A DNA stretch of 64,000 nucleotides from Takakia lepidozioides (Eukaryota > Plantae > Bryophyta). Below, in pieces: positions 1,392 through 64,000 of this stretch (position 1 is its first letter; the number at the start of each line of letters is the position of its first letter). Location: NCBI GenBank assembly GCA_030704615.1, contig CM060732.1, positions 79,546,001 through 79,610,000 on the forward strand. Reading direction: 5' to 3'. A program made the translations under genes and the position numbers. A model generated the notes under the pieces. It worked only from the letters and a program-made list of their open reading frames with translations, did no database searches and was not told where the DNA came from.

Positions 1392-2020
1392 TGTTCAACA
1401 ATGTGGCTGAATGAATTGTGGTGCCGTGGAACGCCATGCTTATGCACAACATGGGTGCGGGATGGAGGCTTTGGAGACCTATGAGTAAATGATGGTGGAA
1501 GGGGTGAAGCCCGACCATATCACGTCTGTGCGTTTGCAAGCCTGGCAGCCCTGGAAAAGGGCAAAGAGGTGCATGGTTGCATCGCGAAAGCAGGAATTGT
1601 ACCAGATGTGATTTTGAACAATACCCTCGTGGACATGTATGCCAAATGTAGGAGGCATTTCAGCATATTCAGATACGTTTGTCTGTCTTTTGCTTAAGTG
1701 CATCAAGATGAAAGGTCTCGAAGCTGGAAAGCAGGTGCACAATCACATTATCCAAAGTGGATTCACGCCAAGTGTTTTTCTCCTCAGCACCCTTGTCAAC
1801 ATGTCAAACCTGGGAACTCTGGAAAAGGGGAAAGAGGTCCATGGTGACATCGTCAAAGCTAGAATTGTACCAGATGTCATTCTGAACACTGCCCTGGTGG
1901 ACATGTATGCCAAATATGGGTGCATTAAGGATGCGAAGGGAGTTCTCAACACTATGGCTGAACGAGATGTGGTGTCATGGAAGACAATGCTTGCAGGGTA
2001 TGCACAACAAGGACGTGGTA
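1392..2020 (+). pseudogene. PLS-class PPR pseudogene, part left of the copy A insertion
   Basis: P-L-S motifs ([15 protein letters not shown]...VSWKTMLAGYAQQGRG). The frame resumes at 12849 once the insertion is removed. Confidence 0.9.
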
Positions 2021-2347
2021 TGTCAAGTTATTTTACCACTAGTGTGAAACTAGCTAGGAAATAGCTAGCTTTTACATATTGACATTTGGGATTGGCCCAA
2101 GTGTCAATCCAGGGGTCAAGGCAGATTTAGGCCCTAGAGTGGTTATCTTCACGGCAAGCGCGGGAGGCTCATCTTTCTCGAGTTGAGCCTCACCGCGCCT
2201 AGCTATGGCGCCGTAGTGTGGATTCCCCATGGCGTGGGGTGCATTTGGCTTGACTTGTATTTGAGTGATGAGGTTATATATGCATGAGTTTATGCTTCAG
2301 CTTTGTGAGCTCGCATGAGCTTGTGCTTGTATTCTTCTTCTTTATCA
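2021..2347 (+). repeat. 5' LTR of copy A
   Basis: TGTCA...TATCA. 2123-2347 recurs at 12442-12666 with 2 mismatches in 225 bp. Homologous to 56124-56489. Confidence 0.9.
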
Positions 2348-2359
2348 CTCGGGAAAGAT
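2348..2359 (+). promoter_or_regulatory. Putative self-priming primer-binding site, copy A
   Basis: CTCGGGAAAGAT is complementary to LTR 2171-2182 (ATCTTTCTCGAG) with one G-U pair. There is no TGG tRNA-type PBS. Confidence 0.7.
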
Positions 2360-4530: not shown

Positions 4531-5175
4531 TGTGCTAGTCTGTGGCGGCCCGTGGTGACGGCCTGTGCTGACTCGTGGAGGCACTGGTGGACTGCCTAAG
4601 GACTGACCGAATTTTGAAGCTCGTGGAAGGGCGGTTTGAGGAGTATCCATGGTCATGCAAGTGAGGGAAGAGAGGAGAGAAGAGTGTTGGGATGAGGGCA
4701 TGCTGGGGTTAGGCATTTCTTTAGCTTCTTTCCTTGTAGTTTCCACCCTCTCATTAGGCCAAGACCTTTCCGTAGGTGGAGGCAAGAGTCAGTTTTGGGC
4801 TGGGGTGTCTTTGCAGGAGCAACACCGTGGAGTTGTTTTTGGTGTGGGGGAGTTGTCTTCTGATTTCTTGTGTTTGGATCCCCTCCATACCTGCATGCTT
4901 GACTGTGCGCCATGCTAGTTTGTGTGGGCGCTTGTTTTTATAGGTGATTGGTCCAGATTTGATCACCGTCCTAGAGCATGCTGTAGATGGTGAGGCTGGG
5001 TGATGACCAGCCAGACCATCATTGTTTCTCCTGTGTGAGGTTAGAGGTGATGACCAGTGCTTGCGGTGGATGCAGGTATAGGTGTAGGCTATGTTAGGAA
5101 CTTAGTATTCCAAACCATAAGGTTTCTCTACCCGGTTACCTTGTGGAGAGGGGTTAGGGACATGTTCATGACCGG

Positions 5176-6930
5176 TTGAGTGTCAACACGGAGGTGCCAC
5201 TAGTTGTTGGGGACAGTGCCGGTTCGAGCACTAGAGACACGAGTGTGCGGTTTAGGCCACCTTCACCTCCTGTGTCTTCTACGGAAGGTTCTGATTCGGA
5301 TTGTGAATCAGGAGGACTCACCGGCAAGTTGTTTCTTTGTCATTGTTGTGGGACACAATGGAGGAGATGTATGGAGCTACCAAGGGGCCACGAATGTACT
5401 CTGGGGCGGTGGGCACCATCGAGTTGGATGATTTTATTTGCCAAATTCCATTTTTTTCATGGCATGGAAGGGGCTGTTTCAGCACCTTGAGGGCCGCCTA
5501 TGGATGATTACCATGAGTTCAGGCGGGGGCATGAGGTTGAGATCGAGGAGTGGAGGATGTATTGGTCACCTGACTATGTCTCCATCACTAGGGGCACTAG
5601 AGCCACGAGGGCAGTGGCTACACCTGCCGTTGCACCAGCAGCTTCAGCGAGTAGCAGTGGGACTAGTGGGACTGGTGGTACAGTAGCTACGACGTCCACC
5701 CAGCCACTACCGCACCAGCACTAGTACCCGTGCCTGCCTTCAACCCTGTTGTGGAGTTCTTCGAAGAGTTGAGAGGGAACTACCAAGGGTGAGGACAGAG
5801 AAGTTGCGGAGCTTGCAAGAGTTCCAACGGAAGCCGACCGAGAGCTTGAGGGAGGCTTTCACTTGCATGAGGCGCTTGATAAATGTAACCCAAGGGGTTA
5901 CGGAAGCTCAGGCAGTCCAATTCTGGTATGGGATATTGGACAAGGAGCTGAGGAGAAGGGTGCGGGATGCAACTCTCCTACAAGCGGCCCAACCCACCTT
6001 AGCAAATGTATTTTTGCTGGCAGAGCGAATAGAGCTCAACATGGTGGAGGAACGAGTGGTCATGGTGGGATTTGCTAAGGAGACACCACGGGGTAGTGGT
6101 GCTCCTAGCCAACCACTACCTCAACGTGCTCAACGCAACAGGGGGCTCAGGTGAAGCTCAGGGAAGGGCAGAGAGGACCTCAGATGCAGGGGTCTCTCCC
6201 TTCATTTGCTGGGCAACAACGGGCGGATGTGGTGTGCTGGACATGTGGAGGACCCCATGTCAAGAAGGATTGCCCAGAGGGAGGCAAAGGGCCGGCACAT
6301 GCACAGCCTGCACAGTTGCAGTGTAGGCATTGTGGCAAGCACGGGCATGGAGAGGCCCAGTGTTATGGTTTGCATCCTGAGTTGCGCCCAGGCCAGTTCG
6401 AAGGGAACAATGGTGGCCGGGGCGAGGTGGAGCAGCCCAGAGAGGACGAGGTGGCCAGCCACAAGGTGCAGGCCAAGGGCAAGCTCAACATGGCCAAGGA
6501 CGCGGAGGTCAGGGTGTTGACCAAGGCATGGCCAACCGGCTTCAGCAGCTAGAGCAAAGGCTCGCTGCCATGGCTATAGCTCAGGTGGTACCAACTCTAA
6601 GGCCGGATGGTCCACCTCCTGCTTCTGAGGGAGGAGATATGGGAGGCATGGGATTCATGTGTGGAGCAACACTACCACTAGTGCAGGTGGAGTCTGCTGC
6701 AGCCGTGACTCAAGGAGCAGCACGAGTTCCTGAGCCATGAGGTGCAGAGGTGGAGTTGGATTCACAGCATGGGGAGGCAAGCCGTCAGGCTAGGCTTCCT
6801 CAGTCGTTCACATTGGTGGAGACAGTGTCGACGCCATCCATGGCACCTAGTTCTTGCCCGACTGTTACCGAGGCGGAGGTTACTATGCCATTGGGGAGAG
6901 CTACACGGGTAGCACAGAGTGCGGAGTACA
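5176..6930 (+). pseudogene. gag: gag of copy A (frameshifted)
   Basis: FQRKPTESLREAF...AVQFWYGILDKELR. Zinc knuckles CWTCGGPHVKKDC and CRHCGKHGHGEAQC. Collinear with 58987-60794. Confidence 0.85.
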
Positions 6931-7197
6931 CTTCCCTCGATGGTCTCTTTGCCTACGGAGCCGGTACAGGCAGTGAGTGGGAGCGAGCATGTGAGGACCA
7001 CGGGGTGCAAGCATCCATGGCACACGTGGGAGATGCTCGAGGTTCAGAGGGAGTTGGCAGCCAAGGTGGCGGTGAAAGATGAGGTTGGGGATTTTTCTCG
7101 GGTGGAGGAAGTCCTTGAGGATGAGATGATGGGGCAGGATGAGGCCTTGTCACTGACTGAGCAGGTAGGGAGTACTGCTCAAGAGGTTGCAACATAG

Positions 7198-10128
7198 CAA
7201 CCACTGGACACGTCATCTACCTCTAAGCCCACTGGACTTAAGGTTGCAGTTACGGAGGACAATTGGGAGCCTGACATTGGACCCATTGTCACCGGAGGAG
7301 AGAGACGACGTATACGGCGGTTCCTGAGGGCTTACAGGAATTGCTTTGCCTTCAGTTTTAAGAACTTGGGAGCACTGAAGGGTCAAAAGATCTGTATTGA
7401 GTTAGCCACTTACACGCCAATCTTTTGGAGACCCTATAGATACAGTGACATGGAGAGGTCTTGATTCAGATGAGGACTCAAGATCTCTGGGAGGCAGGTT
7501 TGGTGGAGCTCTCTGGTGGAGAGTATGCTTCAACCACAGTGATGCCAGCCAAGAAGGATGTCTATGGCAATTGGACGGAGAGACGTATGTGCGGTGATTA
7601 TCGGCCTGTAAATCGTCAGACCAAGTCCAATAAGTATGCCATTGCCAACACCAGAGGAGATTTGATGCCATCGGGCATGCTAAGGTCTTTAGCACTTTGG
7701 ATTTACGATCCGGATATCACCAGTTGCCAATCAAGGAGGCGGACAAGCAGAAGACGACATTCTGGGGGATCAATGAGCACGGCAAGGATTGCCTATATCA
7801 GTGGCGGTTCTTACCATTTGGGCTTAAGAATGCTCCTGCAGAGTTTTAGAGAGTCATGGATAGGATTCTAGCAGGGGTGGACTTTGCTCGGTGCTACATA
7901 GATGACATCATCATCTTTAGTGTTACGATGGAGGAGCATGAGAGACACCTTCAGGTGGTATTTGGAGCGCTTGAGAGCGCACGGATTGAAGTTGCATCCG
8001 GGGAAGTGCAAGTTTTTCCACAACCAGATTGAGTATCTGGGTCACATGATATATCTTGGAGGATTGGGGGTACAGCAGACTAAGGTAGAGGCCATTGCAC
8101 AAATTCCACGCCCCACGGATGTGAGCCGAGTTTGAGCTTTCATGGGGTGGCAAACTATTATAGACGGTTTGTCAAGGGATTTAGTACCATTGCAAAGGCT
8201 CTAACCAAGCTGACCAAGGTGGACCAGGAGTGGCAGTGGGAAGATGAGCAGGAACGAGCTTTTCAAGAGCTCAAGGCGAGGTTGACCTCGGTGCCTATCC
8301 TGAGACGACCTATCAGAGGGCATCCCTTTCAGTTGCATACGGATTGGAGCATGCTGGGGCTTGGAGCGGTGCTCACACAGGTGGATGATGAGGGAAGAGA
8401 GTTCATAGTGGCTTATGCTAACCGCTCGAACAACGCTGCAGAGGCTAAGTACAGCTCTCATATGAGGGAGAGTGCTTAGCTGCAATGTGGGCCGTGGCAC
8501 ACTCAGGTGCTATCTATACGGCAATCTTTTCACCGTTATCACGGATCACCTGCCACTCAAGTGGTTGATGGAGTCAGACAAGCTTACGGGGAAGCTTGCA
8601 CGGTGGGCACATACTCCAGGAGTATGACTTTCAGGTTGTGCATCGACCGGGTTTGGTCAATCGGATGCGGATGGATTGAGTCACAGTCCATGCATGAGCC
8701 AGCAAGATGACACTGAAGCTCGGTGGCATGGTAAGACGGACGAGGAGATGGTGCCGGGATGGTACGCATCTGCATTTTTGTGTATCTTGGCATCGGGAGG
8801 TCAGGTTGGATCTACAACAGGGATGACTATAGATGGAGTGTGTCTGAGGACCCCGTGATGAGCCAGGTGGTGCCAGAGATATATATGAGGATTCGGCTGT
8901 ATTGGACTATCTCCGCACAGGAGACACGACAGCCACTGTCACTGCCAGGGAGAGGGATCGGATCCTGCAACGAGCCTAGAGGTTCAAGTGGGAGGGGATA
9001 CACCTACTTCGAGTGTGGGAGGATGGTCGGGTGAGGATTGTGCCTCACCCCACACAGCGTGCACGGTTAGTGCGGCATGCCCATGAGGAGTTGGGGCATT
9101 TTGGAGTGCGACGCACTCACAGTTTACTGCAAGGGCAGTATTTGTGGCGTGGTATGCATACAGAGGTGCAACAGTTTGTGGCTAGGTGCATGGTGTGTGA
9201 CAGGGTGTGTGCTTCATTCAACACCCCTATACCACAGTTGCATCCTTTACCAATCATGGGATTGGGCTACAGGTGGAGTCTTGACTTCGCAGGACTGTTG
9301 CCACTGACTATGCGCCACCACAGATATGTGTTGGTGATGGTGGAGCACTTCTCCAAGTGGATTGAGTTGGTTCCATTGCCTGACAAGGCTAGTGAGGGGG
9401 CTGCGTATGCATTCTTGGATCGTGTGCTTAGCCGATTTGGTGCTCCAGCTCAGGTACTCACGGACCAAGGGGAGAGAGTTCTTGGGGGAGTTTCAGGCTT
9501 TGTGTGATAAAGCCTTGATAGACCACCGCACCACTTCTCGGGATCATCCTGAGGCCGATGGCTTGGCAGAGAGAGTTGTTCAGACGGTGAAGAGGGGTTT
9601 GCGCAAGTATGGCTTGCAAAAGGGACACCTAGGAGATTGAGATCTTCAGGTTCTTTGGTTAGTCATGGGCTACAGGTTCAGCAAACAAGCATCACTTGCC
9701 TCCTTCTCACCATATTTCCTTCTCTTTGGCCGAGAGCCGGATTTGCCTGCAGCCATTCGTAGGGACACTGCTCAAGTCCTTAACCTTGACGATCCGGACG
9801 TGTGGGTACGTGCATGTGATCAGCGTGCAGAGTTGTTCAAGAAAGTCATGCCCATGGCTTTTTGAGAACCTTGTCATTGCGCAGCACCGTGATACGTTGA
9901 GGTATGCCACTATACGTGGTGGAGGATATCGTCCTGGGTTCGGAGGTTTAGCCCTGGTGACTATGTTTATTTGCAGCAGACTGCTCCTACGACTCTGGAT
10001 GTTACTGCAGGGCGTGTTATTCTGAGGGTTCGAGAGGTGTTGCCCTCAGGGGTCCCGATCTTGGAGGGTCAGGATGGCATGACTTGGAAGGACTATGTGC
10101 GTAATTGTGTGCCATGTCACCTTCCCAA
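7198..10128 (+). pseudogene. pol: pol of copy A: RT, RNase H, integrase (frameshifted, cut by the gap)
   Basis: RMCGDYRPVN, YIDD at 7895-7906, LHTDWS...LGAVL. HHCC motif HAHEELGHFG...CMVC and DDE core WSLDFAG / LTDQG / ADGLAERVVQ. GPY/F-like GGGYRP region. Confidence 0.95.
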
Positions 10129-10628
10129 NNNNNNNNNNNNNNNNNNNNNNNNNNNNNNNNNNNNNNNNNNNNNNNNNNNNNNNNNNNNNNNNNNNNNNNN
10201 NNNNNNNNNNNNNNNNNNNNNNNNNNNNNNNNNNNNNNNNNNNNNNNNNNNNNNNNNNNNNNNNNNNNNNNNNNNNNNNNNNNNNNNNNNNNNNNNNNNN
10301 NNNNNNNNNNNNNNNNNNNNNNNNNNNNNNNNNNNNNNNNNNNNNNNNNNNNNNNNNNNNNNNNNNNNNNNNNNNNNNNNNNNNNNNNNNNNNNNNNNNN
10401 NNNNNNNNNNNNNNNNNNNNNNNNNNNNNNNNNNNNNNNNNNNNNNNNNNNNNNNNNNNNNNNNNNNNNNNNNNNNNNNNNNNNNNNNNNNNNNNNNNNN
10501 NNNNNNNNNNNNNNNNNNNNNNNNNNNNNNNNNNNNNNNNNNNNNNNNNNNNNNNNNNNNNNNNNNNNNNNNNNNNNNNNNNNNNNNNNNNNNNNNNNNN
10601 NNNNNNNNNNNNNNNNNNNNNNNNNNNN
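10129..10628. other. Assembly gap (500 N)
   Basis: Run of N. Confidence 1.
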
Positions 10629-12441: not shown

Positions 12442-12666
12442 AGATTTAGGCCCTGGAGTGGTTATCTTCACGGCAAGCGCGGGAGGCTCATCTTTCTCGA
12501 GTTGAGCCTCACCGCGCCTAGCTATGGCGCCGTAGTGTGGATTCCCCATGGCGTGGGGTGCACTTGGCTTGACTTGTATTTGAGTGATGAGGTTATATAT
12601 GCATGAGTTTATGCTTCAGCTTTGTGAGCTCGCATGAGCTTGTGCTTGTATTCTTCTTCTTTATCA
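12442..12666 (+). repeat. Visible part of the 3' LTR of copy A
   Basis: Direct repeat of 2123-2347. Confidence 0.95.
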
Positions 12667-12844
12667 TTGTGTGGACTAATGACTGCCATAGTGGGCAGCA
12701 TAGTGGCAGCCTAGTGACTGACTAGTTGTAGCCTAGTGGTTGGACTAGTGGTTGGACTAGTGGTATACTAGTGTGTGGTGTGCACATGTGTTGTGTGGTT
12801 TTGGACAGCGATGTAGTTGTGTAGCGATATGTATGCGCACGACA

Positions 12845-15800
12845 GGTATGAAGGCTTTGGAGACCTATGATCAAATGATGGGGGAAGGGGTGAAACCCGA
12901 CCACATCACATTTGTGTGCATTTGCAATGCGTGTGCAAGCCTGACAGCTCTGGAAAAAGGCGAAAGAGGTCCATGGCGACATTGTCAGAGCTGCAATTGT
13001 ACCAAGTCCATTTTGAACAATACCCTCGTGGACATGTATGAAGGGAGTGTTTGACAATATGGCTGATTGAGATGTGGTGTCGTGGAGTGCGATGATTGCA
13101 GGATATGCATAGCAAGGGCGCGTGATAGAGGCTTTGGGACCCTCTGAGCAAATGATGTGCGAAGGGGTGAAGCCCAACGACATAACGTTTGTTGCATTGG
13201 CAATGCGTGTGCAAGCCTGGCAGCCCTGGAAAGGTGCAAAGAGGTCCATGGTGACATCGTCAAATCTGGAATTGTACCCGCTGTCATTATGAACACTGCC
13301 CTACTGGATATGTATGTCAAATGTGAGTGCATCGAGGATGCAAAGGGAGTGTTCGACAATATGGCTGAATGAGATGTGGTGTCGTGGAGTGCGATGATTG
13401 TAGGATATGCACAGCAAGGATGCGGGATGGAGGCTTTGGAGACCTATGAGCAATTGATGTGCGAAGGGGTGAAGCCCAACCGCAACACATTTGTTTGTGT
13501 TTGCAATGCATGTGCAAGCCTATGAGCTCTGGAAAAGGGGAAAGAGGTCCATGGTGACATCGTCAAAGCTGGATTTTAACCAGATGTCATCCTGAACACT
13601 GCCCTGGTGGACATGTATGCCAAATGTGGGTGCATGAAAGATGCGAAGGGAGTTTTCAAATGGCTGAACAAGATGTGGTGTCGTGGAACGCGATGCTTGC
13701 AGGGTATGCACAGCACGGGCGTGGGATGGAGGCTTTGGAGACCTATGAGCAAATGATGGGGGAAGGGGTGAAGCCCGACCACATCACATTTGCAATGCGT
13801 GTGCAAGCTTGGCAGCCCTGGAAAAGGGCAAAGAGGTGCATGGTTGCATCGCCAAAGCTGGAACTGTACCAGGTGTGATCCTGAACACTGCCCTGGTGGA
13901 CATGTATGCCAAATGTGGGAGCATTGAGGGTGCAGAGGGAGTGTTCAACAATATGGCTAAACGAGATTTGTTGTCGTGGAACGTGATGCTTGCAAGATAT
14001 GCACATCAAGGCGTGGGATGGAGGACTTGGAGACCTATGAGCAAATGATGGGGGAAGGGGTGAAGCGCGACCACATCACGTTTGTGTGCGTTTGCAGTGC
14101 GTGTGCAAGCCTAGCAGCCCTAAGGGCAAAGAGGTGCATGGTTGCATTGCCAAAGCTGGAATTGTACAGATGTAAACAATACCCTAGTGGACATGTATGC
14201 CAAATATGGGAACAATATGGCTGAACGAGATTTTGTGCATGGAACGCCATGCTTGCAGGGTATGCACAGCAGGGGCGTGGGATGGAGGCCTTGGATCATA
14301 CCTATGAGCAAATGATGGGGGAAGGGGTGAAATGCAACCACATCACGTTTGTGAGCGTTTGCAATGCTTGTGCAAGCCTGGCAGCCCTAGAAAAGGGCAA
14401 AGAGGTCCATGATGGGGAAAGGGGGGAAGCCCGACCACATCACGTTTGTGTGCATTTGTAATGCATGTGCAAGCCACATTCATTTGTGTTTTCAATGTTG
14501 GTGCCAACATGGTGGCCCTGGAGAAGGGCAAAGATATCCATGCTAACATTATCAAAGCTGGAATTTCGTCATACATTAATTGGGAGACTGCCCTTGTTAA
14601 CATGTATGCCAGATATAGGAGTGTAAGGGAGGCCTATCTAGTGTTCAACAATATGGTGGCAAGATATACCAATCATGGTTGTGGTAGGAATGCCTTCGAG
14701 ACATATGATCAACTGATACAGCAAGGGGTGATGCTAGATCAGGTCACATTTGTTTGCATTCTCAAGGCTTGTGCGAGACTGGCAGCCTTGGAAAACGGCA
14801 AAGAGGTCCATGCTGACATATGAAAGCTGGACTTGTACCAAATCTGATTTTGAACAATAGCCTTGTTGACATGTATGCGAAATGCGGGAGCATGAAGGTT
14901 GCAAAGAGAGTATTTGACAACATGGCTGAACGGGATGTGGTGTCGTGGAATGCGATGATCACAGGATATGCCCAGCATGGGTGTGGGATGGAGGCTTTGG
15001 GGACCTATGAGCAAAAGATGCGGAAGCATTCAACAGAATGCCTCAACGATCTTGATCACGTGGAATATAATGTTGGCAGGATTTACCAAGCATGGGTGTG
15101 GTAGGAATGCTTTTGAGACCTATGAGCAGATTTTGCGCAAAGGGGTGAAGCCCAACCACATCAGATTTGTTTGTGTTTGCAGTGCGTGTGCAAGCCTGGC
15201 AGCCCTAGAAAAGGGCAAAGAGGTGCATGGTTGCATCGCCAAAGCTGGAATTGTACCAGATGTGATTCTGAACAATACCCTCGTAGGCATGTATGCCAAA
15301 TGTGGGGGCATCGAGGATGTGGAGGGAGTGTTCAACAATATGGTTGAACGAAATTTGGTGTCATGGAACGCCATGCTTGTAGGATATGCACAGCAGGGGT
15401 GCGGGATGGAGGCCTGGGGGAAGGGGTGAAGCCCGACCACATCACGTTTGTGTGCATTTGCAATGCGTGTGCAAGCTTGGCAGCCCTAGAAAGGTTCATG
15501 GTGACATCGTCAAAGCTGGAATTGTACCAAATGTCATTCTTGACACTGCCCTGGTTCACTTGTATGTGAAATGTGAGTGCAATGAGGATGCAAAGGGAGT
15601 ATTTGACAATATGGCTGAATGAAATGTGGTGTTGTGAAATGCGGTGATCGCAGGATATGCCTAGCATGGTTGTCATAGGGAGGTCCTGCAACTATTTGCA
15701 GGAATGCAAAAGAAATGCTTGAAGCCGGACAGTATCACCTTTATATGTGTTCTCTCTGCCTGCAACCACACTGACCTACTGAATAAAGGAAGATGCTACT

Positions 15801-30200: not shown

Positions 30201-33200
30201 ACACTTAAGTCATATCTCTTCATCTCTTATTTACTATAGATTTATTTGGTCTCTCAGTATTGACAGTACCATAGAACAGCACCTAATCAATCTGTTTGGG
30301 AAAGATGCAGACAAAGAGAGGTTAATGAAGGGTCACATTTTGGTTTTCATTTTGACAAATTTGGGGTTTGGGTGGTGACTGGATGGCAGGCAATACGAGC
30401 CGTGCGCGATTCTAGGTATGCATGCTATTCCCTTCAAAATGATATATTGGCTACTATTATGTTGGGGACCTTTGGCCATATACTTGCATATTCATTCCCC
30501 TCCTTGTATTTCTTGCTCTTCAAATGGATGCAATGGGATCTTGTAAGCTTGATAAGATGAGCTCAACCATGATCAGTAAGGCCTGGTCCTCAAAGACTCG
30601 CACTGCTTTCCACTCAATGATTTTTAGGGCCCCTTCACCACCCTACTTCCCGCATCCAAAGGCCATTTTGTGAACTCTTCCATCCTGTAGCTTTACGATT
30701 TGTTGTATGCCCTGAGTCAGACTCCATATCATGAAGGGTACCATTCCAGAACCTTGCAACTAGAACTTTCTCTAACATCATCTGAAATACTATGATTGTA
30801 GAAATGCTGAGTGGATGCTTCTCCGGTGCAGACCTGGATCACTGCCAACCCGTAGTCAAGTACAGCATGTGAAGCATTTTGAGGACTGGTTGAAAGATCT
30901 ACGCATTATTTTTGGGTATCCAAGACACTTCTATAAGACAGGCCAAGACCTACTTGGGTTCATGGTCCGGCAGCACAAGTTTTTGCATGGCCAAGAAGCC
31001 CGCGACCTGCGCTGCATACCCAAGGTCTCCCTCTCTTCTCCCTCTCTCTCAAGTATTTCTGGACAATCTTATAAAGTTGTCTCTCGCTGTCCATTTTGTT
31101 CTACTTGGTACCAGAGATACTGTGAACCTCCTGTGGCTATAGCAAACATCCTGTCTCGCCCGCTTCTTCTGGACATCGCACACCTTATCTCTTTCTTCTT
31201 GTGGACACAATATACGTCCTCCCTCTTCTCTTTGAGGTTCTTTCTTCAGGCAATCTCTTGAACAGTAGTTGCTTTTGGGCTGCTTTTGGCTCTCTCTTTG
31301 TGTGCTTTTGAGGCTATGGCAAACAACGTCTTATGAGTACATTTTTTGTGTGCTTTTGTCCTGCTCGTTATAAAGTACCATTCCATTTCGTTTCATTTCC
31401 CATAAGCTGTGTGAGCTCCCAGTGGACATTATAAAGTACCATTTCAGTCCATCTCATTCATTCTTTCTTTCTTTTCCCTCAACCATTCGAAACCAATACT
31501 AGCCTACAGCCAATGTCTCCAAAAACAATTTGGCAGGACTGCAACTGGATGATTCTCTAGGAAAATTCTGTGTTCATGCCTCTCAACAACCCCGAAGATG
31601 TTATAGGTTAAAATTCACAACCTTGTTCTTTGCTTCATGTAATATCAATCCTTACATTGGACTCTGCAGATTGTGTTTTGGATAACCAAGGACCTCATCA
31701 AGCGAACTAATTATGAAAGAGAAAAGAGGGAGAAGATTGCCATTGTATTTATGACAGAATTGGCATCCGAGTTTAAGACTCTGAAGGATTTCAAGTTCCG
31801 TAATCTTGTTACTGATGCCAAGGTCTTCTTCTAGCCCCACATATCCTGTCTTGTCCACACGACCTCTTTTTCTTCGACAGCTTGACTGGCAGTGCAATCA
31901 CAGCAGGTTTTTGTTTGGCTCTGAGCAAGCCATATGGCAATGCTGAGTTGAGTCCTATACACCCTGGTTGGCTGAAACCCCAAAACCGGCATCTATGGGT
32001 ACATGATGGCCAACCTTTGCAGGGGATGGTCATGGACTTGTCCGTTCCATCAAGCAAGAGTGGAAAGCTGGTCTGACCAACAATAAAAAGAAACAAGGAT
32101 GCCCATAGGGCCTATGGACACAGTAGAATTACAAGAGCTCTTAACAATTGAGTATTTTGTTTTTGAAAGTCCCATGATATTATGAAAAGACTGTGGCATC
32201 ACAGAAATGTATGAATGATCTTATCATGTGGATTACTCACAACCAAAATGCCTCGCTACACTCTGTCAACATTTTATGGGATGTCAGTGTTTGTGAGTCT
32301 GCGCATACAGGTCTCTCTCTTTGTTTGTGTGGATGAGAGCGTGGCTGGGTATCTTGTGAATGCAGCTAAGGTTGAATGCTGGCATATGGGATGATGTGGA
32401 GCTCCTAGACACGGAGGTGCTAGTGCACCTTTTGATTGATTGGCTTCGCCTTTTGCAGGTAGCTTTTCTAAATGTTCCTTCATCCCACATCTATAAAATG
32501 TTACATATTCCTGTCTTCCTGTAGTGAAAGCCCTTTGTGATCAGGTACAAGTTAATTCAACTCGAGCCGTCCCTACACTGTATGATCTTTTAGAGGCTGT
32601 GTAGAGACTCTTCCTCGGTGGACCCCAAGGACACCTGAGGAGCATGGTTGAATGGTGGATAAAGCAGACGTCACATGAAAAATAGCAGACGGCACTTTCA
32701 GGAAGTCCAAACAAACAGCTTCCATCAATGATTACCCTTCCAAGCCTATTCATTTTATGGCCTTCTGGAATTGCAGGAGCCAATAGTTCCTGACACAGTA
32801 CTATCATTGGCACTGGGCCGAGGAGAAATACAGGCAGCCGTATGGGAGCTTACCAAGTGTGGCAAGTGTACCCTTGCCACAATTCAAATATTGGCTTGCT
32901 GGATGTTTCAGGTCTCTCCTCTCCCTCTTCTCTATGGAAGACTATATTAGCACGGATCAGCATTCTTTATTTCATACAATGATGATACCGGCTCTGTAAC
33001 TGATTTACTGATATTTGTGAGCTCCATGGCCAGTTCTATGGCCTGAGTTACGGAACTTGGTGAGCGACAACACCATGACAGGTCTGGAAGGCTTAGTACC
33101 ATTTGGGGTGGAGACCAGCAATTATCAACAAGCTTATCAGAAATGCTTGGCAGCTTACCTGCACGAGGCACTCACCCTTTAGACAATCACTCGAGCAATA

Positions 33201-34305
33201 GTTTTTATCTTTGGCTCTGGTTTTGTTTCCTCTCTCATGTTTTCTTCCATTTTGTCCCATAAGCTCTATGAGCTTTCCACGGACATTATAAAGCACCATT
33301 TCATTTCATTTCTCCCTCTCTATGTGCCCTTATGGCCCACTGTCAAAGTTACACAGTTCCTTAGCTTTCTTTGCTTGTGTCAATTGATGTAGCCCTCGTG
33401 GCCCTGTGTGGACATCATAAAGTTTCTAGCTTTCTTTCTCTTTTGTAAAATGGTCCCTGGGAACACTTGGACGCTAGAAAACTGAGGCCTGAAAGGCAAC
33501 AAATATGCCAAAGGGTGATACCCTGTGAAAAGGAAGAACCACCTCACACCATGTGCCACCTCCAACAGTAGGCCAGGGCGTCAAGAGGCACAAAGGGCAG
33601 ATGCCCAAATTCATATTTCATGCACACAGAGCTGATGTGGCTACATGTGAACTGCAGATAGTACCAGTGAAGGCAAGCCTTATCCGGCGTCTGTACAGCG
33701 GATTGGCACATGTGTTGCTGCACCGATCAAGCCTCGAGGATGAGAAAGACAAGGGTTTGTTCAACCCAGGGATCTTACCAGGGAGTGTACCCTCCCAAGA
33801 CTCAAAAAATGATCCATCCTCGAAGCGTCGATCAACAATTTGGGGTAGAGATGCTTCTTTTACAAAGTACAAACCATCTCCTCTAGAAACTGAGTTCGGG
33901 TTGTTGTTAGAAGCTTCGGCGCGGTATTGGATCAAAGAGAACAAGATTGCTAGGGCGCAGCTCCAGGTTGCAAGGAGAGAGAGCTCCTTGCCCAACAATG
34001 GGGACACTCTCGTAGATCTTGCAGCCAGGGAGAAGAGACTGAAGGGACCTCTAAATGAAATTCTTGCTGGGGAACCATGGTTGAAAGACTGTGCAAGTTT
34101 GCAATTTGACAGTGAGGTTGGTTTGACCAACATCCATGCCACCCTCGCAACAAGCGAGGGACAGGCTTGGCAGCTGACTGAACCAACCAGCAGTCTCAGT
34201 GAAAAAGGAGGGCAGGCGCTTGGAGGGTCTAGCTTCAAGGGAGAGAGCCAAGCTCCGGTTTCATCAAAACCTCATCGGGGACGATCCTCGTACACATTTT
34301 GCTGA
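27228..34305 (+). CDS. PTPDC1-like protein tyrosine phosphatase (multi-exon)
   Basis: GT-AG exons with consistent phase: ?-27480, 27912-28038, 28696-28799, 29098-29125, 29678-29742, 30390-30415, 30832-31024, 31670-31822, 32366-32458, 32777-32911, 33658-34305. Motifs SNWVSPNILAAARPS, NLQEPGEHATCG, WRD and catalytic HCHSGLGRTG. The start exon was not located. Confidence 0.88.
28399..28586 (-). mobile_element. 3' fragment of the CATTT-tailed LINE, intronic
   Basis: Matches about 21603-21785. Confidence 0.85.
33136..33312 (+). mobile_element. 3' fragment of the CATTT-tailed LINE, intronic
   Basis: Reverse-complement match to the same 3' end. A smaller remnant lies at about 31370-31460. Confidence 0.85.
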
Positions 34306-50989: not shown

Positions 50990-51341
50990 GAAATGAAATG
51001 AAATGAAATGGAGCTTTATAACGTCCGCGGAAAGCTCATAGAGCTTATGGGACAAAATGGAACAAAACATAAGAGAGGAAACAAAAAAACTATTGTTCGT
51101 GCCTCATGCAGGTAGGCTGCCAAGCATTTCTGATCTTCATAGTGGAAGACTTCAGTGAGAGATTGGGTTCCACGGAATAGACAGTGGAATCACCCACGGA
51201 TCTCATGGTATAGAGGGCAATAGAAGAAGAAGTGTTCTTCAGTTTCAATGTCCTGGTTGCGCCCTGTGCAAGCTGGACATAGGCGGTCCTCTGCCAGTCT
51301 CTATCCGTAGGTTGTGGGAGCCCACCCTGAACAGCCCCAAT
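50990..51341 (-). mobile_element. 3' fragment of the CATTT-tailed LINE with internal deletions
   Basis: Matches about 21603-22005 in pieces. Confidence 0.85.
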
Positions 51342-56123: not shown

Positions 56124-56489
56124 TGTCATGGTTTTAGTCACGGTTAACTAGAATTACCTACTTCTAGTTAACTAGGACATTTTGGATATTTATATTTGTA
56201 TTTTGTGTGTTGGGACTTCATTTGGTCTCACATGCCAAGTGAGGTGTCAAACCTCACTTGGGACATGGGGATGGGTTTTCCCCTTGTGAGCGTTGAGGAG
56301 GGCTCATCTTCTTGTAGTTGAGCCTCCATGAGCCTCTCTCACCTCCATAGCTCTAAGTATTGAGAGGGAGTGTGTTGAGGGCTTTGTAGGGTGGATTCCC
56401 TTAGCAAGGGTGCCCTTGACTTGACTTAGTTTATGTGATTGAGTGGATTCATGAGTGGAGTGTTTCCCTTGTGTTCACTTTCATTATCA
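56124..56489 (+). repeat. 5' LTR of copy B
   Basis: TGTCA...TATCA. Shares the GGCTCA-loop-TGAGCC hairpin and CTTGACTT with the copy A LTR. The partner LTR is outside the window. Confidence 0.75.
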
Positions 56490-56501
56490 CTACAAGAAGA
56501 T
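56490..56501 (+). promoter_or_regulatory. Putative self-priming primer-binding site, copy B
   Basis: CTACAAGAAGAT is the exact reverse complement of LTR 56306-56317 (ATCTTCTTGTAG). Confidence 0.75.
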
Positions 56502-57969
56502 CACCTTATGCTTGTGAGTGCGGAGTGTAAGGGTTAGTTTAGTACTTGTGTGTTGAAGAGCTTGGGAAGATAGCTCTTGTGTTGCAAGGTGTTACATATA
56601 TTGTAAAGGAAAATCTTTGTGGTGTTAGGGCTTTGAGAGATATTGCTTTGCCCTAAGGAGGTGGAGAGCTCAAAGATGGAGCTCTTATAGATCACAAGCC
56701 TTTGCAAGGAAAGGTACTTGTGGTGTTACACCAAGGTGTTGGGGAGCTCAAGAAGGAGCTTGTTTGCCACAAGATTTGCAAGGATTGCAAGAGGGAAGTC
56801 TTGTGTGTGTGGAAACATGGATTCTAGGGTTTGAGAATCATTTCTATGCATTATGGAGTCAATGGTATGTGCCATGGCTTGAGGAGAGCAACCAAAGGAT
56901 TGTTAGTGCTCATTTCACTATCAATCTAGGGTTAAGCAAGCTCAATTGTGGATGTTGTGGAAGAGAAGCCAAGGAGCTACATAGGCTTGGGCTTGAAGAC
57001 AACAAGGGCAAGCACTTGGAGAGCATTAGGAAGCTCAAGAGGTTTGAAGGGAAGCATATGGGTGAAAATTCTATCCATGATGATGTGAAACCAAGCCTAG
57101 AGCATTGAAGAGCTTGGAGCACATGTAGGAGATCATTGGAGGTGGTCTTCATGAAGAAAAGAGATTGTGGCTCAAGGCATGCATAGCAATTTCAACCATA
57201 CATTAGCATGTGACAAGACAAGGAAGGGGAATGTGAAGCTTATGTATTCATTCTCTTTTGGCTTAAGTTTTGTGGTGGATGGTTGATCAAGCAAATGATG
57301 CTTATGTGGAGCATGCTTCCCAAGTGTGGCTTCCAACTTCAAGCTTGATGAGAACTAGAAGGTGAAGGGAGCAAGTTGATTCCCTTGTGTATGAAGTGAT
57401 GCATGTGTGGAGCATGCTTTGGGCTTGAGCAAGCTTGAGAGGAATGGCTCTTGAGCTAGCAAGTGAAGGGAGCTTGAATGACCAAGGCTTGAGAGGAGAC
57501 AAGGCTTGGTGGCTTGCCAAAGGCGGTACAAGCTTGATTTGGAGTTCCAATGAGAAATTGAGCTTGTTGTGTGGCCAATGCATTGCTAGTTGAGTTGGAG
57601 ACAAATTTGAGTAGCTTAAGGTGAAAAAGATCAAGGTAATTTGCCTTGGTACCCCATAGAATTCATGGATGCTTGAGGGGATTAAGCATAGAGCCCCAAG
57701 GAGCACAAACCCTAGCTTGGTAAGGCTAAACCTCAAGGAAATAGAGGGGGAAGTGGCTAAAGCCTAGAGGAAAATGGCTAAACCTTGGGGGGAAATAAAC
57801 TACTCTATGAGGGGGAAATGGCAAGGGGGAATACAAAGGGAATACGTATAGGCCCAGGGGAATACTGGGGGAATACTATGGCATATTCTCAGGAATATTC
57901 CTAGGGAATTTTGGGAACCTATTGGGAACCCATTGGGAACGCATTGGGAACATAGTGACATAGATGAGT

Positions 57970-58260
57970 CATTGGAGGACTGTTTGGAGGACCATTGGGA
58001 GTCCTTGGAGGACTGTTTGGGGTCCTTGGAGGTCTGTTTGGAAGACCATTGGGAGTCCTTGGAGGACTGTTTGGAGGATCATTGGGAGTCCTTGGAGGAC
58101 TATTTGGAGGACCATTGGGAATCCCTGGAGGACTGTTTGGGGTCCTTGGAGGACCATTTAGAGTTCTTTGGAGGACCATTTGGGGTCCTTGGAGGCCAAT
58201 ATTTGGCGAGCTTGAGGAGTCTTTGGCGACTTGTGTGAGGGACTATTGGGGTCCTCAAGG
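57970..58260 (+). repeat. 33/21-bp tandem array in the copy B leader
   Basis: Unit GGAGGACTGTTTGGAGGACCATTGGGAGTCCTT and a 21-bp variant. Confidence 0.95.
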
Positions 58261-58986
58261 GCTAAGTTTTGGTAGGCTCTTGGGGCCTTGGTGTACTGTT
58301 TTGGAGTCCCATCGTGCAAGGATTGGGAGCCTTAGTGAGATTGTTTGAGAGACATATTCTTGAGGGCCCCTGGAGGGTTATTTGAGAGACCCTTGAAAGG
58401 TAGTTTTGTCTATTGTTCAAGCAAGAGAGTGTGGAGATAGGGTAATGGGATGAGAGCATGTTGTGATAGGAATTGCTTTAGTCTCTCTTCCTTGTAGTCT
58501 TCCACCCTCTCTGTAGGCCAAAACCTTTCTGTAGGTGGAGGCAAAAGTCAGTCCGGTTTGGCTGGGGTGTCATTGCAGGAGCGACATTGTGGAGTGTTTT
58601 TGGTGTGGGAGGGTTGCTGTATTGATTTTCTTGTGTTTGGATCCCCTCCGCACCTGCATGCTTGACTATGTGCCATGTTAGCTTTGTGTGGGCGCTTGTT
58701 TTCATAGGAGGTTGGTCCGGATATCACCGGCCAATCCTAGAGCATGCTGTCGGTGGTGAGGCTGGGGTGATGACCAGTCAGACCATCATTGTTTCTCTTA
58801 TGGTGAGGATAGGTTGATGACCAGTAGACCATAGGAGTGCTTGCGGTGGATGCAGATGCAGGTGCAGGTTTATGTTACGAACCTAGTAGTCTAAGCCATA
58901 AGCCGCAACAGGTTCTCTACCCGGTTACCTTGTGGAAAAGGGGATTAGAGACAGGTTTACAACAGGTGTGGTTGTGAGTTTTTGTC

Positions 58987-60794
58987 ACGGAGGTGCCACC
59001 AGTTGCTGAGGAGAGTGCCGGTACGAGCACCAGCGATACTAGTGGGTATACAAGACGAGGTGTGCGGTTTAGGCCACCTTCACCTTCAGTGTCTTCTGAG
59101 GAAGGTTCAGACTCGGAGTCAGGAGGATTCTCGCCGAGGGTGCAAGTTATTTCCATGCCATTGTTGTGGGACACAATGGAGGAGATGTACGGAGCTACCA
59201 AGGGGCCACGTAGGTACTCTGGAGCTGTGGGCACCATCGAGCTTGATGACTTCATACAAGAGTTTGACAGTTGCTGTGATTTGCAGCAGATGCGCAATCC
59301 ACAACTGTTTACGCCTTTAATGGCGTGGAAGGGGCTGTTTCAGCACCTTGAGGGGCCGCCCATGGATGATTACCATGAGTTTAGGCGGGGACATGAGGTG
59401 GAGATTGAGGAATGGCGGGTGTATTGGTCACCTGACTATGTCTCCATCACTAGAGGCACAAGGGTAGTGGTGACACCGGCAGCTACACCGGCAGCTTCTG
59501 CAAGCAGCAGTGGGACGTCAAGTGGAACAGGAGCTGGGAAGTCCACCCAAGCTCCTGCTGCAGCACCAACACCCGTGCCTGCCTTTAACCCAGTTGTGGA
59601 GTTCTTTGAGGAGTTAAGGAGAAACTACCAGGGGATAATGACAGAGAAATTGTGGAGCTTGCAAGAGTTCCAACGAAAGCCTACTGAGAGTTTAAGGGAG
59701 GCTTACACTCGCATGAGGCGCTTGATAAACATAATCCAAGGGGTTACAGAAGCTCAGGCAGTCCAATTCTGGTATGGGATATTGGACAAAGAGCTGAGGA
59801 GAAGGGTGCGGGATGCAACTCTCCTACAAGTGGCCCAACCCACCTTAGCAAACGTGCTTTTGCTGGCAGAGCGGATAGAGCTCAATATGGTGGAGGAGCG
59901 AGTGGTCATGGTGGGATTTGGTAAGGAGACACAACGAAGTGGGGCTCCTAGCCAACAACAACCACTACCCCAACGTGCTCAAGGCAACAAGGGGGCTCAG
60001 GCGAAGCCCAGGGAAGGGCCGAGAGGATCTCAATTGCAGAGGTCTCTTCCTTCATTCTCAGGCCAACAACAGTCGGGTGTGACATGTTGGGATTGTGGAG
60101 GACCCCATGTTAAGAGAGATTGCCCGGAGAGAGGCACAGGCACATCCTACACAACTACAGTGTGGGCATTGTGGCAAGTATGGGCATGAAGAGGCCTATT
60201 GTTATGACTTGCATCCTGCTACAGCCAGGCCAGTTCCAAGGGAACAATGGTGGCCGAAGACGAGGCAATGTAGTCCAGAGAGGTAGAGGAGGCAGAGGTC
60301 GTGGTAGAGGTCGTAACCAAAACCAAGGAGTACAGGGTCACGGTCAAGGTCATGACCAAGGCATGGTAGATAGGCTTGCCCAGCTAGAGCAACGTCTTGC
60401 TACCATGGCCACTACTCATGTTGCGCTAGCTCCAAGGCCTGAGGTTCAAGCCCCACCTGCACAACCTCCTATGCCTAGGGAAGACCAGATTGGTATGGGT
60501 TTCATGTATGGAGCCGCACTTGCAGGACCATTGCATGTGGACTCTGCAGCTGCTGTCACTCAAGCAGCAACGCGTGCTCCTGAGCCAAGAGGAGCGGATA
60601 TGGATTTTGATCCACAAAGACGAGAAACAAATCGGCAGACAAGGCTTCCACAGTCTTTCACATTGGCTGAGACAGTGCCAACTATGTCATCGATGGCACC
60701 CGCTCGCCCAAGTGTGTCAGAGGTAGAGCCACGAGTGCCATTGGGGAGAGTTGGTATGGCTCGGGAAATGCCAGTGGGTGGTACTGCAAAGTAA
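58987..60794 (+). pseudogene. gag: gag of copy B
   Basis: 398-aa open frame with CWDCGGPHVKRDC, then CGHCGKYGHEEAYC after a frameshift, and an RGG-rich tract. Confidence 0.88.
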
Positions 60795-61089
60795 GGTATA
60801 GCCAGAACATTGTTGGGGGCGGCTACGGAAATTTGCCAAGCTTCATTGTTTTCTGCCACGACAATTGCAATGTCGGGGATGCGGCCAGCTGCAGTGTTTA
60901 GACTAGCAGCTACACTCTGTGAGAGTGGTGATGCATCGGCACTATCTGCGGGAATAGCAGATAAGATGCAATGCATGAATGCCCTAGATTCAAGGATGAA
61001 GACAGCCACAGCTGCGCCAGCAAGCGGCAGCCGCAAGGTTACAGAAGTTGTCATCTAGGCCAGCCATTGAGCGCAGTATGGTGACTCCT

Positions 61090-61480
61090 GGGGTAGTCCT
61101 GGTGGACAATCAGGATGGTGTATCTCAGTTGGGTGGCCCAGCCGGGGGGAGGTATAGGCCACTGCGAGTCTTGTTGGACTCAAGAGCACAGCCATTGAGG
61201 TTGGGAAGAGTAGCAATTGCAGGCTTGGGCCTTACAGAGGCGGATTTGGAGCCTTGCCCTTTCCAAATTCAAACATCTTTGGGTGGTTCAGAGAAGGCAC
61301 GAGGGATTACACGCCATGAGCTCTTCATTCGATTGCAGCCGGATCATCCTATGGACGGCTCAGTCATAAGAGCTAAAGCCATTGTTACGGACGCGATGTC
61401 CTATGATGTGCTTGTTGGTGGGGCTGTGTTGTACCCCATGGGATTTACTTTGGATTTTTGGGAAGAAACGGCATCCTACA
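61090..61480 (+). pseudogene. Retropepsin-like aspartic protease domain
   Basis: VLLDSRAQ (DSG to DSR, D at 61177) and YDVLVGGAVL. Confidence 0.8.
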
Positions 61481-61890
61481 GGCCGGAATGGCAGTCAGGA
61501 GATGGCCAATGTGCACTGCTCCCAGTGCGGTTTATTGGGAATGTAGCGGTGGATCATAGGAACATAATGCCCACATTGGCTGCATTCTCAGGGGTGGTGG
61601 TTTGGTGTGGTGAGCTCTTGGAGGGCAATAGCCATGCAGATGATAGGCCATCACCTGATGAGGACAAACAATTGGCATACAAGGCTGATTTGCTTCCTCA
61701 TGTGCCTGTGCATATTCCACTGTGGGGTACGGTTGGGAATTTGCATCAAGTAGCAGGCGAGTGTGTGCACCAAACATGACATGATGCCTTTCCATTGGTG
61801 AGTGAGGGGAGTTCAGTGACATCACTTGGACCTCCTGAGTTAGCTCCTTTGGACACAGTGCCCATTACCTGGCAACCACCTGACTCAGGG

Positions 61891-62830
61891 ATTTGTTTGC
61901 TAGACTTGTTTGAAGGCATGAGCACTGGGCTTGCAGGAGTATTGCAAGCAGGGATTAAAGTACGCAAGTACTTGTATGTGGAGAAGGATGAGATAGCTCA
62001 ACATATTTCTATGCGCCACATCGCCTTGCTTACACACCGGTATCCTAAGTTGTTGCCTCTCTCAGCAATTCAAGGGTATCAAAAGGCCTTGCCAGCAGAC
62101 ATTACCTTTTTGGGGGCGGATGATTTGGACCGGCATGGTGCCATTGACTTGGTGATAGCTGGATGGCCTTGCCAAGGACACTCTCCCGCGGGTCATGAAA
62201 ATGGCTTGCATGATGCACGATCACATTTGTTTTGGGAGATGTTGAGAGTGTTGCGTGACTTGCAGACAAGGCGAGTGCAACCTCTAGCCTACATCTTGGA
62301 GAATGTTCCTCTTATGGGGGACTCTCGGGCCAGGGTTATGGCCAGTGTGCATCAGGTGCGGTCTTGGATTGGATCACCGGTGCTATTGGATGCAGCAGCG
62401 GTGGGATCACGCGCGCTCGACCTCGATTGTGGTGGACCAATCTTGCACCACCAGAGCTGCTCAAGAGAGCATATGATTCCATTCAATGGCTACCCAATCT
62501 CACGATTGAGGGCATTTTGGACCAAGGGAGGCAACCACAGAGGGTGCAACATGATGACCGTCCACCTCTAGCAATGGTCAATCGAGTGGGGCAACCACGT
62601 ACAGCCTTGCCTATGCTCATGAGTTTTCCCTCGTCTCATGTTTTTCGAGATAATGGTCTTGGGTTGATTTGGGACAGTGTGCTACAGCAATTGGTGGAGT
62701 CCAATGCGGATGAGCATGAGCGGGCAATGGGGTTTGCCACGGGCACTACAGCTGTGCCAGCTTTATCAGAGGCATCACGACGCCAGGTGTTGGGTCAGGC
62801 AATGGATCTAAATTTCTTGACATGGATAAT
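61891..62830 (+). pseudogene. C5-cytosine DNA methyltransferase domain (DNMT3-like) within the polyprotein
   Basis: Motif I LDLFEGMSTG, II VEKD, IV IAGWPCQG (Cys at 62170), VI YILENV (62299), VIII RA(H)RPRLWWTNL across a 1-nt deletion at about 62416, IX ERAMGF, X RQVLGQAM. Confidence 0.93.
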
Positions 62831-63212
62831 TGGTTTGTGCATGGCTGAGCAACGGAGATTGCAAGCATTGATAGCTACTTCTACACTCCCATTGGATGGT
62901 GCATCCTCCCTGCCAACCGGGATGGTTGAGGCAGTGAGTGGGGGCGAGCACAAGATCGTGGGTTGGAAACACCCATGGCAGATGTGGGATGAGATGCGCA
63001 AAGAGAGAGTCATTGGATCTCTCAAGCAGCAATATGAGGAGTGGGGAGAGCCATACACTGAGGATCAGTTAGAAGCAAAGGTGACCAATGTTTTTGAAGA
63101 GGTTGAGAATGTTTCTTGCTCAGAGGATGTTCTCAAGGTGGCTATGGCGGAGCAAGTGGAGGCTACGCCACAATCAGATTGGGCGGACAAGGCCCAAGAG
63201 GTTGCTATCTAG

Positions 63213-64000
63213 CAACCAAATGATTCGTCTCCTACCTCCAAGCCTGGTGTACCCAAGGTTGCAGTCACTGAGGACAATTGGGAACTAGATGTTGGACCTA
63301 CAATCACCGGAGGAGAGAGACGGAGGATCCAGCAATTTCTAAGGGCTTATAGAAATTGCTTTGCCTTCGGTTTGAAGGATTTGGGGAGTTTGAAGGGTCA
63401 GGAGATTCGTATTGATTTGGCAAGTGACACGCCAATCTTTCGAAGGCCCTACCGGTTTAGTGACATAGAGAGGTCATTGATCCAGTCACGGACTATGGAG
63501 TTGTTCGAAGCTGGATTGGTGGAATTGTCAGGCGGGGAGTATGCCTCGGCAACGGTGATGCCAGCTAAGAAGGATATCTATGGCAATTGGACAGAAAGAA
63601 GGATGTGTGGGGACTATCGTCCTGTGAACCGTCAGACTAAGTCCGATAGATATGTCATGCCAACTCCAGAGGAGATCTTTGATGCCATTAGGCATGCAAA
63701 GGTGTTTAGCACATTGGACTTGCGATCCGGTTACCACCAGTTGCCAATCAAAGAGGCTGACAAGCAAAAGATGACATTATGGGGGATTGACCAACATGGG
63801 AAGGATTGCTTGTACCAATGGCGGTTCTTACCGTTTGAGCTGAAGAATGCTCCTACAGAGTTTCAGAGGGTCATGGATAGGACTCTCATGGGGCTAGACT
63901 TCGTCCGGTGCTACATTGATGACATCATCGTCTTTAGTGCTACGGTTGAGGAGCATGAGAGACACCTTCAGGTGGTGTTTGAGCGCTTGGGAGCGCACGG
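63213..64000 (+). CDS. pol: Reverse transcriptase of copy B (open to window end)
   Basis: Uninterrupted frame after TAG 63210-63212: RMCGDYRPVN, STLDLRSGYHQ, LPFELKNAP and YIDD at 63912-63923. Confidence 0.95.

Follow-up and report, generated by a model that had tools for sequence, protein, structure and literature searches.

We propose that the two related repeats in a 64,000-nt stretch of the genome of the moss Takakia lepidozioides (the window) are copies of a self-primed, Dnmt3-carrying Ty3/gypsy retrotransposon with split repeats, in which a hairpin hides the further copies of the primer and integration proceeds from a two-LTR circle cut at an internal palindrome; we put the probability of this reading at roughly 0.65. 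Judged from the sequence, priming of this Dnmt3-carrying element is likely to be tRNA-independent and to use the element itself, and folding models make it likely that the primer is the front end of the element's own RNA and not the loop of a hairpin.

The pairing on which the priming argument rests lies, in both copies, between a 12-mer inside the left repeat and a primer-binding site (PBS) behind it:

56306..56317, forward strand: copy B, predicted self-primer with which the transcript likely begins (12/12 Watson-Crick to 56490-56501)
56490..56501, forward strand: copy B, PBS, directly after the end of repeat A (complementarity)
2171..2182, forward strand: copy A, predicted self-primer (complementarity)
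2348..2359, forward strand: copy A, PBS, with one G-U pair (complementarity)

The first-pass annotation had described a PBS complementary to an LTR 12-mer in each copy, with four differing positions that each PBS follows, and this is borne out in position and in pairing: copy B has an exact complement, copy A has 11 Watson-Crick pairs and one G-U, and the 12-mers differ at positions 6, 7, 9 and 10 with each PBS changed to match, so that pairing the primer of one copy with the PBS of the other breaks three positions in each direction. In first-order Markov resamples of the terminal region (n=5000 per copy), an equal Watson-Crick match to the 12 nt after the repeat arose in 1/5000 for copy A and 0/5000 for copy B. 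The complementarity that had been expected of further copies is kept in an intact relative, L050, where a third 12-mer core pairs at 12/12 positions with a PBS 177 nt downstream, the spacing seen in copy A. Across A, B and L050, 36 of 36 cells are paired and four pairs are altered on both sides, a covariation score reached in 1/500 shuffles, with slid controls pairing at 42-50%; this set comprises only three PBS-primer pairs, two of which (A and B) supplied the structure itself. All three PBSs start with CT, none with TGG; they differ at 5/12 positions and each fits its own LTR only. No tRNA gene lies within the 64-kb window. Since the pairing holds in A, B and L050, self-priming without a tRNA, the core of the earlier claim, is likely. 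In LTR elements generally, the PBS is rewritten from the primer during synthesis of plus-strand strong-stop DNA, and matched changes would then be expected from priming itself.

B and L050 share the 5′ A at which pairing stops. In copy A another 4 bp can form upstream, and a B-family variant at 56502, at about 30% of depth, adds 2 bp to the duplex, so the 5′ end may lie a few nucleotides upstream of the 12-mer. Primer and PBS variants are nearly absent among the variants listed, with one C>T at 12492.

The primer lies in, or beside, a hairpin:

56301-56306 and 56319-56324, forward strand: copy B, hairpin arms around the primer, predicted to mask its internal copies (folding)
2158..2198, forward strand: copy A, extended hairpin around the primer, 14 bp with one bulge (folding)
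56504..56532, forward strand: copy B, hairpin just 3′ of the PBS, predicted by folding in A and L050 too

The first-pass annotation had placed the 12-mer in the loop of a conserved GGCTCA/TGAGCC stem, and in A and B this largely stands: the stem occurs at only three sites on each strand of the window (2167, 12486 and 56302), its arms are identical in the two copies although the repeats are otherwise divergent, and only the opening base of the 12-mer belongs to the stem, where it ends the 5′ arm, leaving 11 nt within a 12-nt loop. The conservation of the arms does not extend to L050, nor to a further relative, L065, whose arms differ entirely from GGCTCA/TGAGCC; in these two, 8/12 primer nucleotides are stem-paired in a 12-bp stem with a 4-nt loop. 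Thus a hairpin is conserved but presentation of the primer in a loop is not. In nested folding (ViennaRNA, whose model does not include a loop-PBS pseudoknot) the hairpin and the primer-PBS duplex are mutually exclusive. RNA starting at the 12-mer folds into the duplex with predicted probabilities of 0.69 (A), 0.97 (B) and 0.91 (L050), and the duplex is favoured when the RNA begins at the 12-mer or within about 5 nt of it. Starts 20-48 nt upstream leave the duplex at 0.06-0.2 (A), 0.11 (B) and 0.0 (L050), with 0.72-0.99 for the hairpin. L050 has a TATA-like word at -29 relative to the primer; neither A nor B has one at -30, the only candidate being TATTT at -107 to -142. In runs guessed to be RNA (n=2), long pieces end near 12548-12575, in scattered fashion, and we draw no transcript end from them. 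Flanking ‘pretzel’ duplexes of the Tf1 kind do not clearly exceed chance, being equalled in 18-406 of 500 shuffles.

The ends of the element lie farther out than its repeats suggest:

2017..2020, forward strand: copy A, left 4-bp target-site duplication (TSD), in a PPR gene (empty site of paralogous PPR repeats in loose ends)
2021..2347, forward strand: copy A, repeat A1, made up of unique-looking X (2021-2122) and R1 (2123-2347), starting TGTCA
12442..12666, forward strand: copy A, second R (right part of A2), with the second hairpin and a 12-mer at 12490-12501 (99.1% identity to 2123-2347)
12667..12844, forward strand: copy A, terminal repeat B2 (Y), 177 nt past the 12-mer, ending CGAT-N9-CACGACA (motif and spacing also in L050/L065)
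12845..12848, forward strand: copy A, right 4-bp TSD
56124..56305, forward strand: copy B, the 182 nt ahead of the primer, with the left end (TGTCA) and the U3-like portion of repeat A (depth step; 182-nt spacing in L050)

Copy A spans 2021-12844 (10,824 bp), starts TGTCA, ends CACGACA and is flanked by a 4-bp target duplication inside the PPR gene, which it interrupts (839-2022 and 12845-15783; the PPR family is very large in this host). The first-pass label ‘LTR’ fits in that sequence is repeated and fails in that this is no canonical LTR: only 225 bp recur in copy A (2123-2347 and 12442-12666, two differences), the element extends 102 bp to the left and 178 bp to the right of them, and the borders of the 225-bp repeat show no TG, TSD or purine tract. 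A canonical LTR element nested in a 280-bp TG..CA element was considered and rejected, given the lack of TSD, TG and polypurine tract (PPT) at the R borders and given that the depth step and the junction tie X and Y to the family.

Depth here means public contigs aligned to the window and summed, which is not copy number. At 56124 it jumps from about 100 to more than 300,000 in one run (X1), which fixes the left end of the B family. Loose ends before this point carry the right-terminal octamer of copy A followed by GC (25 contigs in run X1, one in run X5), and loose ends behind 12845 run into the left end of the element (42 contigs in X1, agreement 0.54; four in X5, agreement 0.96); a junction of right end, GC and left end thus exists in both families. 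The depth of Y equals that of R and exceeds that of the internal region about 20-fold (again summed, not copy number), and the U5|B joint in the A family has continuous depth and no indel among those listed. The conserved B|A junction reads CACGACA-GC-TGTCA, with a palindromic CA-GC-TG, in host contigs, L050 and L065. At least two contig pieces break off at 12441, which would fit a deletion breakpoint in copy A; this copy is non-autonomous and has likely lost the PPT, B1, the GC and the first 102 bp of A2. Just upstream of its second repeat, at 12300-12441, the word GCTCA/TGAGC occurs seven times (49/kb vs 2.6/kb window-wide) in short hairpins that include a perfect 20-nt palindrome, and 12383-12393 is an 11-nt match to the R|Y joint of copy A.

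The relatives supply what the two moss copies lack. L050 is one of 13 loci found by a search; the other 12 are distant Gypsy elements that lack the junction. It forms a closed cycle of 9,158 bp, which could be an assembly collapse, and has a pol 64% identical to the query. It carries CGAT-N9-CACGACA-GC-TGTCA and then, as in B, 182 nt to the third 12-mer. L065, an integrated 3′ end on a second contig of the same assembly with an integrase-PHD 96% identical to that of L050, has the order integrase-PHD, G-rich PPT, B1, GC, A2, B2 and then flank without GC; its B2 is identical to B1 over 106 bp, so that B1-A2-B2 is directly visible. In both L065 and copy A the distance from the 12-mer to the start of B2 is 177 nt, exactly that at which the PBS starts at the 5′ end. 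The U5 end of L065 is not CA, as would be expected if the U5 end is no att site. In L050 and L065 the first 5 nt of B and of the PBS are identical (7 nt in L050 if the preceding CA is counted), whereas the starts of B2 and PBS in copy A are unlike. The layout A1-PBS-coding-PPT-B1-GC-A2-B2, with TG..CA ends and a 4-bp TSD, rests as a whole on L050 and L065 (from another host) together with short contig ends, since copy A is without B1, junction and PPT, and the 3′ end of B lies outside the window. Plant retrotransposon contigs, that of L050 among them (C201 and C148 of G001), have been sorted into a metagenome-assembled genome of a cyanobacterium, and in NCBI/UniRef the pol protein is annotated as bacterial, a database contamination.

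Both copies are Ty3/gypsy retrotransposons by their coding content:

58978..60794, forward strand: copy B, gag region, frameshifted (weak Retrotrans_gag match, E 0.0057; tblastn to L050 ORF1)
61000..63212, forward strand: copy B, protease-like region and Dnmt3-like C5 methyltransferase, frameshifted (PF00145, E 1.7e-13; 40-52% identity to L050 ORF1)
63213..63998, forward strand: copy B, reverse transcriptase (RT), running off the window (RVT_1, E 3.2e-20)
5158..10128, forward strand: copy A, broken gag-pol (RT, RNase H, integrase), followed by an assembly gap at 10129-10628

Copy B thus has gag, a protease-like region, a C5 cytosine methylase and RT, all in broken frames, and copy A has remnants of RT, RNase H and integrase and is, relative to B, without about 2.4 kb covering protease and methylase. 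The open frames of L050 encode gag-protease-methylase, then after one stop codon RT-RNase H-integrase-PHD, and the best PDB matches of its methylase domain are DNMT3A/3B/3C. A C-terminal PHD finger and no chromodomain are found in L050 ORF2 and in protein P0001; the corresponding region of copy A falls inside the N gap. The stop codon that ends the methylase region of copy B stands at the same place in A and L050: an in-frame TAG, with CAA next, lies between methylase and RT in each of them (63210-63212 in B, near 7195 in A, near 3490 in L050), and this single TAG-CAA is a candidate stop-codon read-through site. The long (2.5-2.8 kb) 5′ leaders contain degenerate tandem repeats (A 3744-4557, B 57852-58348), and those of L050 are shorter. 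Between the integrase and the 3′ end of copy A, the ORF at 11242-11787 encodes 181 aa that include a SWIM zinc finger (PF04434, E 2.5e-05); gene capture or a nested fragment of a MULE may account for it, and L050 has none at the corresponding place.

Among 2342 candidates (longer proteins only), 44 matched as RT relatives, among them proteins from Calypogeia, Marchantia and Sphagnum and one from Coleochaete; they often end in PHD. A quick tree of RT (38 of the 44 proteins and the 13 loci, short alignments omitted, without a Tf1 or Tcn1 reference) puts the Coleochaete protein in the same starred clade, and no named Klebsormidium nitens sequence is among the matches.

The hairpin pattern occurs in DNA of 47 metagenome-contig loci and one viral-contig locus. 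In none of these 48 does a 12/12 complement follow downstream, and none resembles the window in DNA sequence (one, L019, has a weak RT match of 27% and was judged unrelated). RT searches of viral contigs yielded one 30% match and then none, and the junction pattern there had one match, without family proteins. Among 401 genomes sampled from the phylum of the metagenome-assembled genome G001, the junction pattern was found only in G001 itself, where four 1-mismatch matches lie without family proteins. Against Rfam, 1900-2700 gave no match and 12200-12900 a single one attributable to chance (E 0.63). The PBS of B resembles the end motif of CACTA transposons, which we regard as coincidental since the PBSs of A and L050 differ. 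Elsewhere in the window, a nearby host ORF shows 54-58% identity to Sphagnum proteins, and another dispersed repeat has five partial copies (21603-22004, 28397-28586, 31386-31458, 33136-33320 and 50990-51341), in both orientations and all beginning at a (GAAAT)n run; it may represent the 3′ terminus of a minus-strand LINE or SINE.

Turning to known systems, the priming is closest to that of the Tf1/sushi group. Tf1 primes itself with the first 11 bases of its transcript, released by an RNase H cut (PMC7175516), and Tf1/Tf2 of Schizosaccharomyces pombe likewise have no tRNA PBS and an 11-12-nt PBS after U5 that is complementary to their own LTR (PMC7175516; bioRxiv 10.1101/2022.12.06.519325). 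The Ty3/gypsy domain order is also shared, but Tf1/sushi elements carry a chromodomain, whereas the moss element has a PHD finger, a Dnmt3-like domain, split repeats and a hairpin over the predicted start. In plants, self-priming has been predicted for 12% of LTR elements, mainly Tcn1 and TAR (83% and 89%, respectively, in non-seed plants), recognised as we do here (Neumann et al. 2019, PMC6317226): by the criterion in the methods of that study, at least 10 nt that begin 0-5 nt behind the 5′ repeat complement the LTR of the same element, as is the case in A, B and L050. Tcn1 has a chromodomain (100%), a 5-bp TSD (100%), a mean size of 6.4 kb and canonical LTRs, and the 4-bp-TSD lineages Phygy and Selgy are tRNA-primed (PMC6317226); PHD, 4-bp TSD and split repeats rule out membership of Tcn1.

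The split direct repeats, A1-B1-A2-B2, are shared with PAT and Ngaro (PMC4157794), but those elements use a tyrosine recombinase and the moss element an rve/DDE integrase, with TG..CA ends and a 4-bp TSD. Membership of PAT/Ngaro/DIRS is rejected on the rve and H2C2 integrase domains, the absence of a recombinase match in the three L050 ORFs and the presence of a TSD. KnitGypsy-Dnmt3 of Klebsormidium nitens likewise has a Dnmt3-related domain in a Gypsy polyprotein (de Mendoza et al. 2018, PMC5890265), and its figure legend describes repeats arranged as in DIRS elements, A-coding-B-A-B. Both traits are found here, the methylase within a Gypsy polyprotein in B and L050 and A-coding-B-A-B in L065 and host contigs. 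The comparison is by description only, and KnitGypsy-Dnmt3 comes from a charophyte alga, whereas the relatives of the moss element are from Marchantia, Calypogeia, Sphagnum and Coleochaete. The moss element is best placed with streptophyte Gypsy-Dnmt3, and is Tf1-like in its priming. As far as consulted, PMC5890265 is silent on priming mode, TSD, PHD, att junction and the mechanism of integration. The name ‘KnitGypsy’ appeared in one paper only in the literature searched, where we also found no priming mode, att junction or integration model for streptophyte Gypsy-Dnmt3 (most subscription papers and Repbase lay outside its scope, and Additional file 1 of PMC6317226 could list members). A 2026 preprint, in the part available, mentions Gypsy-DNMT3 only in passing, and the part seen of bioRxiv 10.1101/2021.11.30.470311 holds nothing specific to Gypsy-Dnmt3 priming or ends.

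The foamy-virus integrase cuts a palindromic LTR-LTR junction to 2-nt 5′ overhangs in vitro (PMC1180852), and resembles what we propose in being a DDE enzyme that cuts after CA, on both strands, at an abutted palindromic junction with a 2-nt spacer. The foamy-virus junction, however, is made anew by end joining, whereas that of the moss element is inherited inside the repeat and its cDNA ends would be without an att site.

We therefore picture the following cycle. Transcription would start at the A of the 12-mer, so that the 5′ hairpin arm would be missing from the RNA, and the 5′ end would pair with the PBS; RNase H would cut after nucleotide 12, as in Tf1. The A2 copy of the 12-mer would stay folded and be no competitor, because both of its arms are transcribed; the hairpin thus probably masks the internal primer copies, and it may alternatively have a role in 3′-end formation or strand transfer. 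Two-jump reverse transcription from the PPT before B1 would yield a linear cDNA whose true LTR is B-GC-A, the ends of which would join precisely, U5 to the start of B, to give a two-LTR circle. At one GC junction the DDE integrase would then cut both strands behind the CA, giving 2-nt 5′ overhangs, and insert A-coding-B-A-B. Circle junctions of the IS3 and IS30 families, where abutted ends with a 2-nt spacer undergo DDE cutting, offer a parallel to CA-GC-TG. Recombination between A1 and A2 would leave A-B solo units, which would fit the depth of R and Y relative to the internal region. We also considered, and rejected, a primer cut internally from a transcript starting at the left end of the element as the source of both termini, which cannot regenerate B.

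Three other accounts have to be weighed against this cycle. The earlier suggestion of a loop-presented rather than a 5′-terminal primer would place the transcription start ahead of the hairpin and have the 12-mer serve as an internal primer with a 5′ tail, presented by the loop or by the opened hairpin; tRNA primers likewise carry 5′ tails. The near-complete loop position and identical arms in the otherwise divergent copies A and B would suit it, as would their lack of a TATA at -30 and the folding of B RNA from the full left end, which still forms the duplex (0.96). It sits badly with L050, where the 12-mer lies mostly in the stem and duplex probability is 0.0 for starts at least 8 nt upstream; the shared A at which complementarity stops in B and L050 also speaks against it, and a 12-bp helix on a closed 12-nt loop would be sterically implausible. 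We accordingly hold loop presentation to be unlikely. Priming by a small RNA of the host, such as a tRNA half, with the LTR-PBS complementarity serving another step such as RNA folding or strand transfer, is more improbable still: tRNA-half priming is known in bryophyte copia lineages (PMC6317226, Additional file 5), but one conserved host RNA cannot fit three PBSs that differ as these do, each fitting its own LTR, and the TGG start is missing from all of them.

The remaining account accepts self-priming and disputes the circle: a third template switch or a strand-displacement run-on would give a linear concatemer containing A-B-A-B, which the integrase would cut internally. The 5 nt shared by the starts of B and PBS in L050 and L065 could direct such a switch, and the U5|B joint appears precise in the A family; the unlike starts in copy A show, however, that this microhomology is not general. 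Circle and concatemer are inseparable by sequence alone and both require internal cleavage; we consider the concatemer doubtful, if less so than the other two accounts, and prefer the self-primed element that integrates from a two-LTR circle.

Considering the wider group, we suggest, with a shade less confidence than for the element itself and still as the better bet, that in a streptophyte Ty3/gypsy clade the att sites moved from the LTR ends to an inherited CA-GC-TG junction in mid-LTR, entailing obligate circle-junction integration by a retroviral-type integrase and DIRS-like repeats without a tyrosine recombinase. With att sites in mid-LTR, the self-primed cDNA would have to be joined end to end and opened internally. 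Self-priming itself is a known mechanism (Tf1, Tcn1, TAR), and the internal att junction is the more interesting feature. Self-priming among plant Gypsy elements has so far been thought confined to Tcn1 chromoviruses, and the family described here, with its PHD and Dnmt3-like domain, would if true be a second lineage; the terminal layout outweighs this in importance. Whether circle junctions are true precursors for retroviral-type integrases is an old, unsettled question, and with the junction kept in the genome sequence as a conserved, 2-nt-spaced palindrome it becomes directly testable with the intact L050. In bryophyte genomes, LTR finders that need paired TG..CA LTRs would miss or misannotate this abundant family along with its A-B solo units.
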